From an uncultured delta proteobacterium (lineage in GTDB: Bacteria > Desulfobacterota > Desulfuromonadia > Desulfuromonadales > BM103), in NCBI GenBank assembly GCA_963715335.1, contig CAVQRZ010000001.1:1-64000 (forward strand): a stretch of DNA of 64,000 nt. Reading direction: 5' to 3'. A program made the translations under genes and the position numbers. Of this stretch, positions 44,921 to 50,762 are shown in pieces (position 1 is the first letter of the stretch; each line of letters starts with the position of its first letter). Under the pieces are notes generated by a model. The model was not told the DNA's origin. It saw nothing but the letters and a program-made list of their open reading frames with translations, and searched no databases.

Positions 44921-47440
44921 ATGGATGAATTTCTCTCAAAACCGGTACAGGAACAGCTTCGCCAGGAAATCCGGGAATCCGGCGGCAACGAAATCTTCTG
45001 CATCGGCCACACCGATGCCGGACAGGTCGTCATCGACCTGGAGATTCTTGCCCGCGGCAATCGGGAGGCTGTTCCAGCCATCCTGCAATCCTGTCGCCCC
45101 GGCGATGTGGTTATCCACAACCACCCCAGCGGACATCTTGAACCATCCGGGCCTGACCTTGCCATCGCCGGCAGCCTCGGCTCACTGGGGGTCGGCTTCT
45201 ATATTGTCGACAACCGGGTCAAGCAGCTCTACCGGGTCGTCGAGGCTTTCGAGCCGGTCCAAAACCGCGCCGTTGAACACGAACAAGTCTCGGAACTGCT
45301 GGGTGCTGGAGGGCCGGTCAGCGAGAACCTGCCCGGTTTCGAAGATCGGCCTGAGCAGCTGCGCATGGCGTTTGCCGTGGCCGATGCCCTCAACCAGCAT
45401 CGCATCGCTCTGATCGAAGCGGGGACCGGGACCGGCAAAAGCCTTGCTTACCTGGTCCCGGCAATCCTCTGGTCGCTGGCCAACCGCGAAAGACTGGTCA
45501 TTTCGACCAACACCATCAATCTCCAGGAGCAGCTGATTCGCAAGGACCTGCCCTTCCTGCGACGGGCCACTGGCCTGGATTTCCAGGTGGTTCTGGTCAA
45601 GGGTCGATCGAACTATCTCTGCAAACGCCGCCTGGAAAGCGCCACCGCCGAGCCGGGGCTTTTCGACAGCGAGCACATCGGTGAATTGAACGCCTTGCAC
45701 GAGTGGGCAGAACAAACCGGAGACGGCTCACGCGAGGACCTCTCCTTTCTGCCACACACAACGGTCTGGGAAGAAGTCTGCTGTGAAGCCGACCAGTGCA
45801 GCCGCAGCCAGTGCCCGCACTTTGGCAGCTGCTTTTTCCACCAGGCCCGGCGGCAGGCTGCCCGGGCCGACCTCCTGGTGGTCAATCATGCGCTGTTGCT
45901 GGCGGATCTTTCGCTGCGCAGCCAGACCGACAATTATTCCGCCCTCGCTGTCCTGCCGCCATTTTCCCGGCTGATCATCGACGAAGCACATCATCTGGAA
46001 GAAGTCGCAACCCGCTACTTCAGCACCCAGGTCACCCGCTTTGCCTTCGCTCGCACCCTGCACCGCCTGCGCCACCCGCGCAAGCCGCAGCGCGGGCTCC
46101 TGCCACGGCTGCTGGCCCAACTCGGCCGCTCCCTCGACGACAGCCAGGACCGCCTGTACCGCGACCTGCACGAGCAGATTGATGCGCTGACAGTCAAAAA
46201 CCAGCAACTGTTTGATCGAGCGGTCGCCGATCTTGAGCAGGCCGGAATTGACCTGGCAAGCGCGCTTGGCACGGAAATTCGCTCCGGAGAGGAGATCCGG
46301 CAACGCCTGGTTCCGGCCTTTGCCGAGAAGGAGGCCTGGCAGCATACGGTGGGTATGTTACGCAGCCTGGCCCGCAGCACCGGCGAATTCGGCGAACTGC
46401 TCCAGGGGCTTCTCAAGGCTTTACGCAAACTCCCCGACGAGGCCGGCGAGGCAATCCGGTCTCTCGGCACCGACCTGGCCGGCATCAGCCTGCGATTACA
46501 GGCCATGGCCCAGAGTTTACACACCTTCACGATCGATGATCCGCAATCCTGCGCGTGGTTTGAAATCACCCGCGGCCGCATCGGTCGCAGCGAGGGGATC
46601 ATCACCCGGCTCTGCACGGCACCTCTCGTCGTTGCCCCGCTGCTGAGAGACACCTTGCTGGAGCGCATGCAGACCGTGGTCCTGACCAGCGCAACCCTTA
46701 CCGTGGCCGAGCGCTTCGACTACCTGCGCCAGCGGACCGGCCTCAATGAGCTGGAGCCCTCGCGCATTAGCGAACTGCTGCTCGCTTCACCCTTCGACTT
46801 CAGGCAACAGGCTCTGCTGGCCATACCGACTGACATCCCGGAGCCCGGCCAACCAGGTTTTGCTGAAGCCGTTCGAGACTTGACAGAGCAAGCCCTGCTG
46901 GCCGCAGATGGCCGGAGCTTCGTGCTCTTCACCGCCTACAGCATGCTGCGCCGCATCCACGCTGAACTGGCCCCGGGCCTCTCCGCGAAGGGCTACCAGG
47001 TGCTGCGGCAAGGGGAATCGACCCGTCACAACCTGTTGCAGAAATTCAGCCAGGACCCGACCAGCATCCTGTTTGCCACCGACTCTTTCTGGGAGGGGGT
47101 CGACGTGCCGGGCCGCTCCCTGGAGCAGGTCATCATCGCCAGACTGCCATTCAAGGTACCGACGGAACCGGTCCTCGAAGCGCGCGCCGAAGCAATTACC
47201 GCGGCCGGAGGAGACCCGTTCATGGAATACACGGTCCCCCAGGCCGTGATCCGGTTCCGGCAGGGATTCGGCCGCCTGATTCGGCAGAAAACCGACCGCG
47301 GCATCGTCCTGATCCTCGACAGTCGTGTGGTCAGGCGCGGCTACGGACGACTGTTCCTGCGCTCCCTCCCCGACGTGCCGGTCGCGACCATGCCCCGGGT
47401 GGAACTGATGGAGAAGCTCAGGGAATTTTTTAGGGGCTAA
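44921..47440 (+). CDS. DinG/YoaA-family helicase with an N-terminal JAB/MPN (RadC-like) domain
   Basis: GNE...IHNHPSGHLEPSGPD; EAGTGTGKS; Fe-S cysteines; DEAH; FWEGVD; QGFGRLIR. Confidence 0.9.
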   Translation: MDEFLSKPVQEQLRQEIRESGGNEIFCIGHTDAGQVVIDLEILARGNREAVPAILQSCRPGDVVIHNHPSGHLEPSGPDLAIAGSLGSLGVGFYIVDNRVKQLYRVVEAFEPVQNRAVEHEQVSELLGAGGPVSENLPGFEDRPEQLRMAFAVADALNQHRIALIEAGTGTGKSLAYLVPAILWSLANRERLVISTNTINLQEQLIRKDLPFLRRATGLDFQVVLVKGRSNYLCKRRLESATAEPGLFDSEHIGELNALHEWAEQTGDGSREDLSFLPHTTVWEEVCCEADQCSRSQCPHFGSCFFHQARRQAARADLLVVNHALLLADLSLRSQTDNYSALAVLPPFSRLIIDEAHHLEEVATRYFSTQVTRFAFARTLHRLRHPRKPQRGLLPRLLAQLGRSLDDSQDRLYRDLHEQIDALTVKNQQLFDRAVADLEQAGIDLASALGTEIRSGEEIRQRLVPAFAEKEAWQHTVGMLRSLARSTGEFGELLQGLLKALRKLPDEAGEAIRSLGTDLAGISLRLQAMAQSLHTFTIDDPQSCAWFEITRGRIGRSEGIITRLCTAPLVVAPLLRDTLLERMQTVVLTSATLTVAERFDYLRQRTGLNELEPSRISELLLASPFDFRQQALLAIPTDIPEPGQPGFAEAVRDLTEQALLAADGRSFVLFTAYSMLRRIHAELAPGLSAKGYQVLRQGESTRHNLLQKFSQDPTSILFATDSFWEGVDVPGRSLEQVIIARLPFKVPTEPVLEARAEAITAAGGDPFMEYTVPQAVIRFRQGFGRLIRQKTDRGIVLILDSRVVRRGYGRLFLRSLPDVPVATMPRVELMEKLREFFRG

Positions 47441-47442
47441 AA

Positions 47443-47580
47443 GAAGTAGCCAGAATTCAGAATTCAGAATCCAGAATAGCCAGTAGCAGTCAGAATTCAG
47501 TAGCCGGTAGCCAGTAGCCATTAGATGTCGGCAAGGTTTGCTTCTCATTCTTGATTCTGAATTCTGGATTCTGGATACTG
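47443..47580. repeat. Heptamer-unit (CAGAATT/CAGTAGC) direct-plus-inverted repeat cassette
   Basis: cagaattcagaattcagaatccagaatagccagtagc... followed by ttctgaattctggattctggatactg. Confidence 0.85.
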
Positions 47581-47615
47581 CCCCCCTCCCTCGCCACTCA
47601 CTGCACAACAATTGA

Positions 47616-47643
47616 TTGACAATCCGCACCGAGTCGTGATAAC
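47616..47643 (+). promoter_or_regulatory. Candidate sigma70 promoter for the leader-aminotransferase transcript
   Basis: TTGACA-N16-GATAAC. Confidence 0.5.
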
Positions 47644-47677
47644 AGACTGAAACATTAAAAACGCAATGGAGCAGAGC

Positions 47678-47785
47678 ATGATCAGGGCCACCGCAAACAT
47701 CGCAGCAGCAAAAACTGCCCGAGCTAACAGCGCGGCAGCCGCGGCGGCCGCCTGCCGGAGACCTGTCCATTGCCTTGGAAAATGA
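47678..47785 (+). CDS. Ala-rich leader peptide, 35 aa (MIRATANIAAAKTARANSAAAAAAACRRPVHCLGK)
   Basis: GGAG at 47668-47671, ATG at 47678, TGA at 47783-47785; 14 Ala codons, 7 consecutive. Confidence 0.8.
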   Translation: MIRATANIAAAKTARANSAAAAAAACRRPVHCLGK

Positions 47786-47835
47786 GTTAACTGTTTACTG
47801 CATCAAGGCCATGGGCAAAAGCCCATGGCCTTTTT
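47764..47835 (+). terminator. Attenuator: terminator 47805-47835 and competing antiterminator (47764-47777 paired with 47804-47817)
   Basis: AAGGCCATGGGC-AAAA-GCCCATGGCCTTTTT; TGTCCATTGCCTTG pairs with CAAGGCCATGGGCA at 13 of 14 positions including one G-U. Confidence 0.8.
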
Positions 47836-47868
47836 AATTTCAACGGGTAGCACGGGAAGGAAGATTTC

Positions 47869-49182
47869 ATGCGTAACAACATAGTTCATATCGGTGCCGG
47901 TGAGTTGACCTACGAGATCCGCGCCATCGTCGAAATCGCCGATACGCTCAGATCGCTTGGCATCAAGACCAACATGGAGAACATCGGCGACCCGATCGCC
48001 AAAGGGGAAATGATCCCCCAGTGGATGAAACAGATCGTCGCCGACCTCGCCATGCAAGACTGCTCCTACGGCTATTGCGCCACCAAGGGCGTTCCGGAAA
48101 CCCGTGCCTTTCTCGCCGAGATGACCAACCGCCGCGGCAAGGCCCAGGTGACAATCAATGACATCATCTTTTTTAACGGCCTCGGTGATGCGATTCAGAA
48201 GGTTTACGGCCTGCTCAAACGGGAATCGCGCGTCATTGGCCCGACCCCGACCTACTCCACCCATTCTTCCGGCGAAGCGGCGCATGCCGGGCAGAAGCCG
48301 GTCTGCTACAAGCTTGACCCCGACAACAAATGGTATCCTGACATGGACGACCTGCGGCTGTCGATCAAGTACAACCCGGCGATCTCGGGTATCCTGATCA
48401 TCAATCCGGACAACCCGACCGGGGCCGTCTGGCCAGAGCGGATCCTCAAGGAGATGGTCTCCATCGCCAAGGAATTCGATCTCTTCATCATCGCCGACGA
48501 AATCTACCAGAACCTGGTCTACAATGGCGAATCGACCAAGCCGATATCCGACCTGGTTGGCGATGTCCCGGCGATTTCCTTGAAAGGGATCAGCAAGGAA
48601 GTGCCCTGGCCCGGCTCGCGCTGCGGCTGGATGGAAGTCTACAACGCCGATAAGGACCCGATGTTCAAACGCTACATCCAGAGCATCGTCGACTCGAAGA
48701 TGGTCGAGGTCTGCTCCACGACCCTGCCGCAGAAAGCGATTCCGCCGATTCTCAGCCATCCCGAATACCAGGGCTGGCTCACTGAACGGATCGTCCGTTA
48801 CGAGAAGTTTTCCAACATCGCCTACGATATCCTGAAAAAAGTGCCCGGGGTCAAGGTCAACCGGACCAACGGCGCATTCTACATGAGCGTCGCCTTCAGG
48901 GAAGGAGCCCTCAACGACCGTCAGACTTTGCCGATTGAGATCCCCGAAGTACGCGAACTCGTAGAAAACCTGGTCAATCAGCCCGGGGTCTCCCTGGACA
49001 AACGCTTCGTCTACTACCTGTTGGCATCAACCGGAATCTGCGTCGTGCCATTGTCATCCTTTTTCACCCCGGAGCAGGGCTTCCGGATTACCCTGCTGGA
49101 GCGCGATGAAGCGACCTTCACGCGTATATTCGAACAGATTGCAGCCAACATCACCAGGTACCTGGACTCTCACAGCGAATAG
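47869..49182 (+). CDS. PLP-dependent class I/II aminotransferase, AlaA/alanine aminotransferase-like
   Basis: YEIR and NIGDP N-terminal motifs as in AlaA-type enzymes; INPDNPTG, ADEIY, GISK..PWPGSRCGW, GAFY. Confidence 0.85.
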   Translation: MRNNIVHIGAGELTYEIRAIVEIADTLRSLGIKTNMENIGDPIAKGEMIPQWMKQIVADLAMQDCSYGYCATKGVPETRAFLAEMTNRRGKAQVTINDIIFFNGLGDAIQKVYGLLKRESRVIGPTPTYSTHSSGEAAHAGQKPVCYKLDPDNKWYPDMDDLRLSIKYNPAISGILIINPDNPTGAVWPERILKEMVSIAKEFDLFIIADEIYQNLVYNGESTKPISDLVGDVPAISLKGISKEVPWPGSRCGWMEVYNADKDPMFKRYIQSIVDSKMVEVCSTTLPQKAIPPILSHPEYQGWLTERIVRYEKFSNIAYDILKKVPGVKVNRTNGAFYMSVAFREGALNDRQTLPIEIPEVRELVENLVNQPGVSLDKRFVYYLLASTGICVVPLSSFFTPEQGFRITLLERDEATFTRIFEQIAANITRYLDSHSE

Positions 49183-49191
49183 ACTTGAGCG

Positions 49192-49222
49192 AAAAAGGCC
49201 GGCACACAATGTCGGCCTTTTT
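49192..49222 (+). terminator. Intrinsic terminator after the aminotransferase
   Basis: AAAAAGGCCGGCA...TGTCGGCCTTTTT. Confidence 0.8.
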
Positions 49223-49340
49223 GTTATACTGGACGCGGATGTCATTTTAATCTGTCCGCCATAACGCAGACCTGAACGAGACGACCTGACGCGTCTTGCG
49301 AACACTGCCGGCTTTTTTGATTGGGGCTCCCGACACCTGC

Positions 49341-50762
49341 ATGCTGACACCCAGACTGATAAATCGTGACGCTCTGATTACGTCGCAAAAACAACTGATC
49401 GACTACCTCGCGGCAGGCGCTCGTCCGGAAGCGGATTGGGGGATCGGCGCAGAAATGGAAAAGCTGGTCCTCGACGCACGGACGGGGGCAGCCGCGGAAT
49501 TTTCAAGGATCGAGGCGTTGCTCGCGACACTGGCAGCAACCGGCAACTGGCGGGAGCAGCGGCAAGGCTCCCGGCTGATCGGCCTGCAGGGAGAAACTTC
49601 TTCGATAACGATCGAGCCAGGCGGTCAGTTGGAGTTATCCGGCGAGCTCTGTGCCGACCTGTTCTGCAACTGCAGCGACTTCTCCAGGCATATTGCAAAT
49701 ACCGTCGCGGCCTGCAGGCAATTGGACCTGGTTCTGCTTGGTCTCGGCACGCAGCCTTTCAGCAGCCTCGATGAAATCGAATGGGCACCCAAGGCCCGCT
49801 ACGATATCATGGGCCCTTACATGTTAAAAACCGGCGACATGGGTCAGCGCATGATGAAACAGAGCGCAGGACTCCAGGTCAATCTTGATTTCAGTGACGA
49901 AGCGGACTGCATGAGGAAGCTGCGCCTCGCCCAGTTTCTTGCGCCGTTGCTTTACGGGCTGTTCGCCAACTCGCCACTGCTGGATGGCAAGCCGAGCGGC
50001 TTTTTGAGCACCCGTGGAGAGATCTGGTCGCGAACCGACCCTGACCGGACCGGGCTCCTCCCTTTCCTCGACAAGCCGGATGCCGGTTTTAACGACTACG
50101 TTGAGTACGCCCTCGACATACCGATGTATTTCATTGCCCGCGAGGGGAGCTACCTGGACCTGACCCGCAACCGCTTCAGCTTCCGCGATTTCCTGGAGCA
50201 AGGGCATGCCGGCCAGCATGCAACCATGGCCGACTGGGACCTGCACCTGTCAACCCTGTTTCCGGAGGTTCGCCTGCGGCCACAGGTAGAGGTGCGCTGC
50301 GCCGACAGCCTGCCGCCCCACCTGGTCCTGACCGTCGCCGCCCTGCTCAAGGGTCTCATGTACGATGAGAGCGCCTTCCAGGCCGCGTGGCGCGAGTGTC
50401 AGCTGGACTCTCTCGACGAGATCCGCGCCAGCTGCCGAACAGCCTGGCGCCTGGGGCTGCGAACCCCCTGGAAGGGCGGCACTCTACAGGATTTGGCAAG
50501 GACCTGCCTGGAGCTGGCCCGTGCAGGCCTCGACCGCCAGCAGGTACGACGCGGCCAGGAACGCAGCGAGCGCTGCTTCCTTGACGGCCTCGACACACTG
50601 ATCGAGGGTGGACAGACGCTCGCCGAGCAACTGCTGCAGAACTGGCACGGGGATCGTCAGGAAAAGCTCAAAAAGCTGATCGGCCATTGCGGTTTTTTCG
50701 ACGTTGTCCCGAACCGACCCGGCGAAAACTGTGCAAACACGCAGTTCTCGCCTGCGCGCTGA
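49341..50762 (+). CDS. Glutamate--cysteine ligase (GCS2, plant/alphaproteobacterial type)
   Basis: IGAEMEK, TIEPGGQLELSG, QVNLDF, LFANSP, HLSTLFPEVR, EVRCAD. Confidence 0.88.
   Translation: MLTPRLINRDALITSQKQLIDYLAAGARPEADWGIGAEMEKLVLDARTGAAAEFSRIEALLATLAATGNWREQRQGSRLIGLQGETSSITIEPGGQLELSGELCADLFCNCSDFSRHIANTVAACRQLDLVLLGLGTQPFSSLDEIEWAPKARYDIMGPYMLKTGDMGQRMMKQSAGLQVNLDFSDEADCMRKLRLAQFLAPLLYGLFANSPLLDGKPSGFLSTRGEIWSRTDPDRTGLLPFLDKPDAGFNDYVEYALDIPMYFIAREGSYLDLTRNRFSFRDFLEQGHAGQHATMADWDLHLSTLFPEVRLRPQVEVRCADSLPPHLVLTVAALLKGLMYDESAFQAAWRECQLDSLDEIRASCRTAWRLGLRTPWKGGTLQDLARTCLELARAGLDRQQVRRGQERSERCFLDGLDTLIEGGQTLAEQLLQNWHGDRQEKLKKLIGHCGFFDVVPNRPGENCANTQFSPAR

Follow-up and report, generated by a model that had tools for sequence, protein, structure and literature searches.

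A candidate alanine-codon leader-peptide attenuator upstream of an AlaA-like aminotransferase gene in the Desulfuromonadales

What is a short, alanine-rich reading frame doing between a promoter-like sequence and an intrinsic terminator, directly ahead of a metabolic gene? The question is raised by a locus on contig CAVQRZ010000001.1 of an uncultured delta proteobacterium of the order Desulfuromonadales. The window analyzed here, a stretch of 64,000 nucleotides (nt), contains a gene for an AlaA-like aminotransferase preceded by a leader of this kind. An initial annotation, made from the sequence of the window, had proposed that the leader is an attenuator governed by its Ala codons. The comparative analysis supports this proposal through the conservation of the small upstream open reading frame (uORF) and of the terminator, through the variation of the Ala codons at their third positions, and through sister modules found elsewhere in the phylum. 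With a probability of roughly 0.77, the locus is a ribosome-mediated leader-peptide attenuator that senses Ala-tRNA in front of a single AlaA-like aminotransferase gene.

Architecture and conservation of the leader

The elements of the locus are as follows, with coordinates given within the window.

47616..47621, + strand: −35 hexamer TTGACA of the putative leader promoter, read from the sequence
47637..47645, + strand: extended −10 element (TG-A-TAACAG), TGATAACAG, read from the sequence, with the conserved TGnTA
47663..47674, + strand: translation-initiation region GCAATGGAGCAG, with the Shine-Dalgarno (SD) sequence GGAG at 47668-71; candidate "segment 1", partner of 47761-47771
47678..47785, + strand: leader open reading frame (ORF) of 35 codons plus TGA (47783-85), MIRATANIAAAKTARANSAAAAAAACRRPVHCLGK, with 14 Ala, taken from the ORF listing and the orthologous uORFs
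47717..47725, + strand: Ala-Arg(CGA)-Ala motif, CGA at 47720-47722, common to most leaders
47732..47752, + strand: seven Ala codons in a row, A19-A25 (GCG GCA GCC GCG GCG GCC GCC), the proposed regulatory codons
47764..47777, + strand: segment 2, the candidate antiterminator strand TGTCCATTGCCTTG, within the last leader codons V30-G34; pairs with the terminator 5′ arm
47805..47835, + strand: intrinsic terminator with a 12-bp stem (47805-16 with 47821-32), an AAAA loop, and a T tract; its 5′ arm is common to the antiterminator
47869..49182, + strand: pyridoxal phosphate (PLP)-dependent class-I aminotransferase, AlaA-like, 437 amino acids, NCBIfam NF005334/PRK06855
49197..49222, + strand: terminator-like hairpin (GGCCG...CGGCC) followed by T5, 3′ of the aminotransferase stop, read from the sequence

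The promoter-like TTGACA, the GGAG ribosome-binding site, the 35-codon ORF with its 14 Ala codons, the seven-Ala run, and the terminator with its T tract had all been described in the initial annotation, and each was located where that annotation had placed it, with an offset of at most 1 nt. The −35 hexamer is separated by 15 nt from TGATAACAG, and the transcript probably starts a few nucleotides 3′ of the extended −10. The SD sequence lies six nt 5′ of the leader ATG at 47678. A second in-frame ATG further 5′, at 47666, would give a 39-codon ORF; the orthologous leaders favor 47678. All four GCN codons are used in the leader (GCC five times, GCA five times, GCG three times, and GCT once), and the T tract of the terminator ends 33 nt before the aminotransferase ATG at 47869.

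An orthologue of the aminotransferase is present in 58 of 61 related genomes, representing 25 families of the order. The upstream DNA was compared at 57 orthologue loci, leaving out one (L023) at which the 5′ end of the gene is missing; because the genomes are related, the counts that follow are not independent trials. A GGCCATGG...CCATGGCC stem with a T tract occurs in 56 of the 57 upstream regions, L049 being the exception. An SD-led, Ala-rich uORF that ends shortly 5′ of the terminator, on whose presence upstream of orthologues the initial annotation had made its reading depend, was recovered by script at 55 of 56 loci. The 56th (L028) has an Ala-rich frame in the ORF listing, with 9 Ala of 39 residues and the ending ...ATRAARAFRAAAASVRPLRLPVA. 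The leaders have these properties in common.

uORF length: 23-41 codons, exactly 35 in 28 of 55
uORF start: ATG in 53 of 55
Median Ala fraction of the uORF: 0.34 (55 leaders)
Longest Ala run of at least 5: 40 of 55 leaders, with a run of 7 in 23
Distance from uORF stop to terminator arm of 19-27 nt: 48 of 55
Distance from terminator end to gene start of at most 65 nt (20-65 nt): 44 of 56

An SD-like motif is found in 51 of the 55 orthologous leaders, and the arrangement TTGAC-N14-17-TGnTA is kept in 55 of 56, at 18 to 55 nt 5′ of the leader ATG. The N- and C-terminal residues of the leader peptides differ greatly between loci, yet the architecture is constant.

A covariance model of the core plus terminator was built from these leaders, so that its matches among the relatives are mostly training sequences. 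It retrieves one full-length copy in the genome of the window and one copy adjoining the gene in 57 of the 61 relatives, and the three genomes without the gene are also without the leader. The second match of the model in the window's genome (C26:61010) is an ordinary terminator after a gene. A pattern scan of this genome for the module gave four other matches, all inside long open frames, and a scan for small ORFs with an Ala run and a strong terminator before a gene returned one convincing case, that of the window. Being single-copy in its genome and conserved beside the orthologue, the leader element is more than a chance arrangement.

Beyond the order, 150 sampled genomes of the phylum yielded seven full-length matches 5′ of the orthologue (60-75% identity). 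Six of these have Ala-rich uORFs with the xRA/CGA motif, and their terminator variants are compensatory, for example GGCCGTGG/CCACGGCC; for the seventh, L077, the script printed no uORF. The conserved set of uORF, stop position, terminator, and arm-pairing segment is found in 25 families of the order and in seven further genomes of the phylum. Metatranscriptome contigs from sediment contain at most 0.21 of the sampled words, come mostly from relatives with 88-95% likeness, and carry no information on starts, ends, or strand; the stretches that they leave uncovered are uninformative.

The pattern of substitution within the leader points to constraint at the level of codons. The core block comprises 12 codons, GCN CGA GCN AAC AGC GCG GCN GCN GCG GCG GCC GCN, with a mean column entropy that rises from 0.53 bits at the first codon position and 0.58 at the second to 1.22 at the third. 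Single Ala codons have entropies of about 0.1-0.8 at their first two positions and of 0.8-1.95 at the third; GC is held and N varies across the leaders. Since the variation falls at third positions, it is the Ala codons that are constrained and not a fixed nucleotide string, which argues against an element acting as RNA only and suggests that the leader frame is translated. A hairpin within the conserved CGAGCUAACAGCGCG block was considered by eye on the alignment, where variants break its pairs; since the block also has the codon periodicity just described, it is read as conservation at the codon or peptide level.

The Ala run is preceded in most leaders by an [A/G]-R-A motif (44 of 55), in which Arg is encoded by CGA in 43 of 44 cases, although only 8.3% of the Arg codons counted over 1436 long ORFs of this genome are CGA. 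That this codon acts as a deliberately slow codon, or belongs to a nascent-peptide element, is speculation.

Terminator, antiterminator, and the proposed switch

The terminator AAGGCCATGGGC-AAAA-GCCCATGGCCTT (47805-47832, with the T tract to 47835) has a calculated energy of −23.8 kcal/mol. Across the leaders, 98.1% of its alignment cells are paired, and 6 of the 12 pairs have changed on both sides, a value that none of 500 shuffles reached. The initial annotation had called for covariation to be sought in both terminator and antiterminator, and it is the terminator that displays it, in the form of these compensatory changes.

The alternative pairing that had been proposed for the window was reproduced: segment 2 (47764-47777) and the complementary stretch CAAGGCCATGGGCA (47804-47817) form 13 of 14 pairs, one of them G-U, with a single T.C mismatch. 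The duplex has an energy of −15.1 kcal/mol, compared with a shuffle mean of −9.2 (z = −2.64; 2 of 200 shuffles equal). Segment 2 ends 5 nt before the leader stop codon. In the window, the terminator and antiterminator pairings are mutually exclusive. Across 56 sequences, 80.1% of the antiterminator cells can pair, versus 23.7-47.2% in slid controls. A duplex with z < −2 is obtained for 26 of 55 leaders, chiefly those with ...VHCL or ...VHG C-terminal codons and mostly from the window's own family, and most leaders of other families retain only a TGYCC...GCC core able to pair with GGGCA.

In the unconstrained minimum free energy structure of 47640-47870 (z = −2.37), the terminator is formed and segment 2 is paired to the SD region. 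Folding with a masked ribosome, a further check put forward in the initial annotation, gave the expected contrast in the window transcript: with the ribosome on the Ala run, 11 of 12 nt of the terminator 5′ arm pair with segment 2, and with the ribosome on the stop codon only 3 of 12 nt do so. These foldings used truncated transcripts and are illustrative only. Segment 1 and segment 2 can form a duplex of −13.1 kcal/mol in the window, with a z of only −0.95. In 28 of 55 leaders, segment 2 has a best upstream partner that overlaps the SD sequence or start, in some cases with sequences that differ on both sides. This 1:2 helix is doubtful, and an untranslated leader could therefore either terminate or read through.

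A search of 47300-48000 against Rfam with cmscan, at E values up to 10, returned only fstAT (E 3.4) and bglG (E 9.9), chance-level matches that overlap neither the leader ORF nor the terminator. A known riboswitch, a T-box, and the Rfam leader families (His, Leu, Thr, Trp, Phe, and others) are ruled out as descriptions of the locus, none of them giving a match.

In many leaders of other families, a small GC hairpin with the leader stop codon in or near its loop lies between the antiterminator strand and the terminator, as in GGGGG-AUAA-CCCCC and CCCCC-UGA-GGGGG (loci L025, L033, L034, L036, L040, L042, L043, and others). Such a hairpin may help to couple translation termination to the switch.

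From these elements the following mechanism can be proposed. Transcription would begin at the conserved TTGACA/extended −10 promoter, and a ribosome would load at the GGAG and the ATG at 47678 to translate the 35-codon leader. With Ala-tRNA(Ala) plentiful, the ribosome would clear the Ala-Arg(CGA)-Ala motif and the seven-Ala run and reach the stop at 47783, where its footprint would lie over segment 2; the terminator at 47805-47832 with its T tract would then form, and transcription would end 33 nt before the gene. With charged Ala-tRNA scarce, the ribosome would stall on 47732-47752, which ends 11 nt 5′ of segment 2. Segment 2 would be left free to pair with 47804-47817 as the arm emerges, no terminator would form, and RNA polymerase would read into the aminotransferase gene, whose product presumably makes alanine from pyruvate and glutamate. 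Expression would in this way be expected to rise as charged Ala-tRNA becomes scarce.

Sister elements, the enzyme, and competing explanations

The covariance model also retrieves, outside the window's order, partial matches that comprise segment 2 and the terminator, and 22 of these, among many, were examined (loci L073-L095). The sister module has the form GTCTGCCCATYGCC ... AAGGCCATGGGCAGAC ... CCCATGGCCTTTTT, with E values from the model of 1e-5 to 4e-9 per genome. These elements were found by their likeness to the model, and their similarity to it is therefore by construction. A downstream ORF is present at 20 of the 22 matches, and 18 of the 20 ORFs match a family, distributed as follows.

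DAHP synthase: 5 sister loci
ADH synthase: 3 sister loci
2-isopropylmalate synthase (leuA): 3 sister loci
dapA: 2 sister loci
PRK06836 aminotransferase: 2 sister loci
Acetolactate synthase (ilvB): 1 sister locus
Tryptophan-tRNA ligase (trpS): 1 sister locus
Indolepyruvate oxidoreductase alpha: 1 sister locus

Most of the sister leader peptides are rich in the cognate residues (FNFNFWFYFYYYY, LLLLLLL, KIKVDKKRKVKKRGR, and AWIW), the aromatic genes being preceded by strings of F, Y, and W, leuA by runs of L, dapA by a K-rich peptide, and trpS by W (examples are L076:1500-1604, L075 on the minus strand, L082:1500-1570, and L088). L083, reported as a full-length match, precedes ilvB and not the orthologue and is counted among the 22; neither this locus nor L084 gave a convincing leader in the script. 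The sister elements are homologous to the window's leader in antiterminator strand and terminator, and they share its layout of stop, spacer, and terminator; what sets them apart is a leader peptide rich in F/Y/W, L, K, or W in place of Ala. That codon content follows the downstream gene is not by construction, and it is a hallmark of leader-peptide attenuation. By analogy, the sister leaders lend the best indirect support to the proposals that the shared module is a working switch, that Ala is what the window's leader senses, and that the enzyme belongs to alanine metabolism. A literature search on leader peptides and attenuation in Geobacter and the Deltaproteobacteria, which did not extend to subscription-only papers, returned no paper on this module.

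Among the sister leaders, the Lys-rich one before dapA and the one before trpS are unusual in their own right.

A wider picture can be sketched tentatively, with the odds against it. One cassette, marked by the invariant GGCCAUGGGC arm, may have been copied as a modular "chassis" before many genes across the phylum, with the leader peptide swapped each time (Ala, Lys, Leu, aromatic, and Trp for trpS). In such a scheme, Ala-Arg(CGA)-Ala might act as a programmed slow-decoding site or nascent-peptide brake that times the ribosome against the polymerase in place of a 1:2 pause hairpin, and the near-invariance of the arm might reflect a sequence-specific requirement that goes beyond pairing, for instance a signal for pausing or a site of contact with a factor.

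The regulated enzyme is a full-length member of NCBIfam NF005334/PRK06855, scoring 740 bits against a cut-off of 443, and the family is named only "PLP-dependent aminotransferase," with no assigned substrate. Its closest solved relatives, over about 330 residues, are AlaA of Escherichia coli (4cvq, 4.7e-44) and the alanine aminotransferase of Pyrococcus furiosus (1xi9, 8.4e-43). The YxIR and NIGxP motifs, in which the initial annotation had recognized an AlaA-type protein, do align with both structures: YEIR and NIGDP of the enzyme correspond to YDIR and NIGNP in 4cvq and to YAIR and NIGDP in 1xi9. The INPxNPTG motif and the SK lysine region also align with the two structures. Although these are the best structural matches and share the motifs, the enzyme falls in a different NCBIfam equivalog; its score with PRK08363, the model for alanine aminotransferases, is 172.5 bits, where the cut-off is 534. 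Within its 90% cluster, one member carries the source name "alanine-synthesizing transaminase" and others "aspartate/methionine/tyrosine aminotransferase." A literature search on this enzyme family found nothing.

Several observations weigh against an Ala-sensing attenuator at this locus. Those concerning the enzyme come first: "AlaA-like" is a fair label for a protein whose substrate is predicted from relatives, and it need not be the main source of alanine, because an alanine dehydrogenase that scores above its family cut-off is encoded in the same genome, as are 11 further aminotransferases of PF00155. A consensus scan for sigma-70 promoters returned no sites; the promoter is called because TTGAC-N14-17-TGnTA is conserved across the leaders, and not from that scan. 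Covariation in the antiterminator, the other half of the check proposed initially, is not above that of shuffles across the 56 sequences, because the terminator 5′ arm that it shares is nearly invariant. In 29 of 55 leaders, mostly of other families, the antiterminator duplex does not surpass its shuffles (z of −2 or above), and the anti-antiterminator (1:2) helix has z < −2 in only 9 of 55. The contrast obtained with a masked ribosome in the window becomes weak across the 55 leaders: at least 6 nt of the arm are paired upstream in 47-50 of them with no ribosome or with one on the Ala run, and the arm is still paired in 39 of 55 with the ribosome at the stop, because it finds other GC-rich partners.

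Further points on the same side come from the wider comparison. The gap between terminator and gene is 73-322 nt at 12 of 56 loci, which leaves room for a second promoter. In the complete genome G058 (locus L049), the orthologue, at 76% identity, has no leader, terminator, or promoter motif upstream; this is a case of natural loss or replacement. The near-invariance of CGA and of the terminator arm suggests constraints outside a simple attenuator model. Finally, a 196-nt metatranscriptome contig of a relative that spans 47728-47923, from the Ala run across the terminator and into the gene, is compatible with read-through RNA or equally with DNA carry-over, and is given no weight.

The main rival explanation is a less specific one, in which the leader is a general translation-stress attenuator that responds to antibiotics, starvation of any kind, or ribosome shortage, and its Ala richness is a by-product of GC content or of RNA pairing. 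The geometry of the switch indeed needs only a ribosome that fails to reach the stop in time, and the leader also contains the conserved slow-type CGA codon and other residues. An arrangement of this kind would resemble the whiB7 or erm/cat leaders, and the whiB7 uORF is described as responding to many stresses (PMC10274678). What makes this explanation unlikely is the specificity of the alanine content. The median Ala fraction of 0.34 compares with 0.095 in the long ORFs of the genome, runs of at least 5 Ala persist in 40 of 55 leaders although the residues around them have diverged, and the GCN codons vary at third positions only. Moreover, the sister elements carry codon runs matched to their genes on the same switch module, and the gene downstream of the Ala-rich leader is AlaA-like.

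It is very improbable that the ORF is instead an independent gene for an Ala-rich microprotein, with the aminotransferase transcribed separately and their adjacency a matter of gene order. The ORF is under coding constraint and has a promoter and terminator of its own, and the 12 loci with the longer gap would suit such an arrangement. Against it, the gap is only 20-65 nt at 44 of 56 loci, the peptide diverges freely outside the ARA motif and the Ala run, and the C-terminal codons are conserved where they are able to pair with the terminator arm. The leader and the gene also go together one to one (57 genomes with the leader, 58 with the gene, 3 with neither), and modules homologous to this one, fitted with different leaders, stand in front of other genes of biosynthesis.

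The leader could also be a riboswitch-like RNA that binds a ligand, or the target of a protein that recognizes the invariant GGCCAUGGGC arm, in either case indifferent to translation of the ORF. This explanation would account for a terminator 5′ arm that is almost invariant across the order and recurs in the phylum, which is unusual for a plain terminator, but it is just as improbable given an Rfam search with nothing but chance-level matches at E up to 10, the codon periodicity in place of paired columns in the most conserved upstream block, the conserved SD sequence and ATG, and the amino acid content of leaders that follows the downstream gene.

The surroundings of the leader unit are as follows. 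It sits 3′ of a DinG/YoaA-type helicase gene (44921-47440, + strand), whose product has an N-terminal extension with a weak match to RadC, and of a repeat-filled spacer. On its other side, 49296-50762 (+ strand) encodes a plant-type glutamate-cysteine ligase (388 bits, below the equivalog cut-off of 463). Neither flanking gene points to alanine. The hairpin at 49197..49222 suggests that the aminotransferase forms a one-gene unit; the terminator scan did not call it, its loop being beyond the 8-nt limit of the scan. The spacer between helicase and promoter (47442-47580) is made of 7-nt CAGAATN-type repeats and forms an inverted repeat whose two 33-nt arms, 47445-77 and 47547-79, match with 91% complementarity. 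Across the genome there are 43 occurrences of the word GAATCCAGAAT, many of them in tandem arrays of 7 nt and some at other places on the window's contig, and the spacer belongs to a dispersed family of intergenic repeats.

Significance and comparison with known leaders

If the Ala-sensing attenuator is borne out, a direct Ala attenuator has been kept across an order of metal-reducing sediment bacteria, and the mechanism would come to include a central metabolite connected with pyruvate and nitrogen balance and with the supply of the cell wall. It would provide a functional label, alanine synthesis, for the substrate-unassigned PRK06855 family, and a small natural alanine-responsive part for reporters. 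Together with the sister leaders, it would offer a natural series in which one module is reused with different codon "addresses," and in which the contribution of CGA could be followed.

The enterobacterial attenuators trpL, hisL, leuL, thrL, ilvL/ivbL, and pheL are the textbook examples of the leader-peptide type. To our knowledge, the amino acids that textbooks give as sensed through leader-peptide attenuation do not include alanine, and the alanine aminotransferases of E. coli are controlled by protein regulators, alaA being regulated by Lrp. The window's leader resembles the enterobacterial attenuators in having an SD-led short ORF with a codon run, an intrinsic terminator immediately 5′ of the gene, a second pairing that would compete for the 5′ arm of that terminator, and a geometry in which a finishing ribosome at the stop would cover the antiterminator. 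It differs from them in its regulatory codons, which specify an amino acid used by none of those leaders, and in lacking an Rfam match and an established 1:2 pause or anti-antiterminator hairpin. A single aminotransferase gene stands here in place of a pathway operon, and a near-invariant Arg-CGA precedes the Ala run. Attenuation of this type has been modelled (PMC1183508).

The initial annotation had stated that no alanine-specific attenuator had been characterized, and in this respect it is out of date. In mycobacteria, the whiB7 uORF is described as an "Ala leader" tuned to alanine, with feedback via WhiB7 on AspC, an alanine aminotransferase (PMC10274678), and a 2025 preprint builds on this work (bioRxiv 10.1101/2025.10.10.681568). 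A literature search for alanine leaders and attenuators found only this mycobacterial work and general papers on attenuation to be relevant; subscription-only surveys from the 2000s lay outside its scope, so that a prior mention is possible.

The whiB7 leader, as described, and the window's leader both have an Ala-enriched uORF 5′ of a rho-independent terminator, stalling on which favors (or, in the window, would favor) an antiterminator, with an outcome that raises an alanine aminotransferase, AspC in mycobacteria, and closes an alanine feedback loop, as would be predicted for the window. The whiB7 leader controls a transcription factor that activates aspC and drug resistance genes, whereas the leader described here stands directly before the aminotransferase gene. 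The whiB7 uORF is longer and more mixed and is reported to sense many amino acids and antibiotics, in contrast to the compact run of up to 7-8 Ala found here. The two come from unrelated phyla and the gene downstream in the window does not belong to the WhiB family; the likeness is one of functional analogy only. The window's leader is thus not the first alanine-tuned leader in print; new here are a compact, direct cis-attenuator, as we read it, of an AlaA-like enzyme, the conserved CGA, and a family of modules that can be re-addressed.

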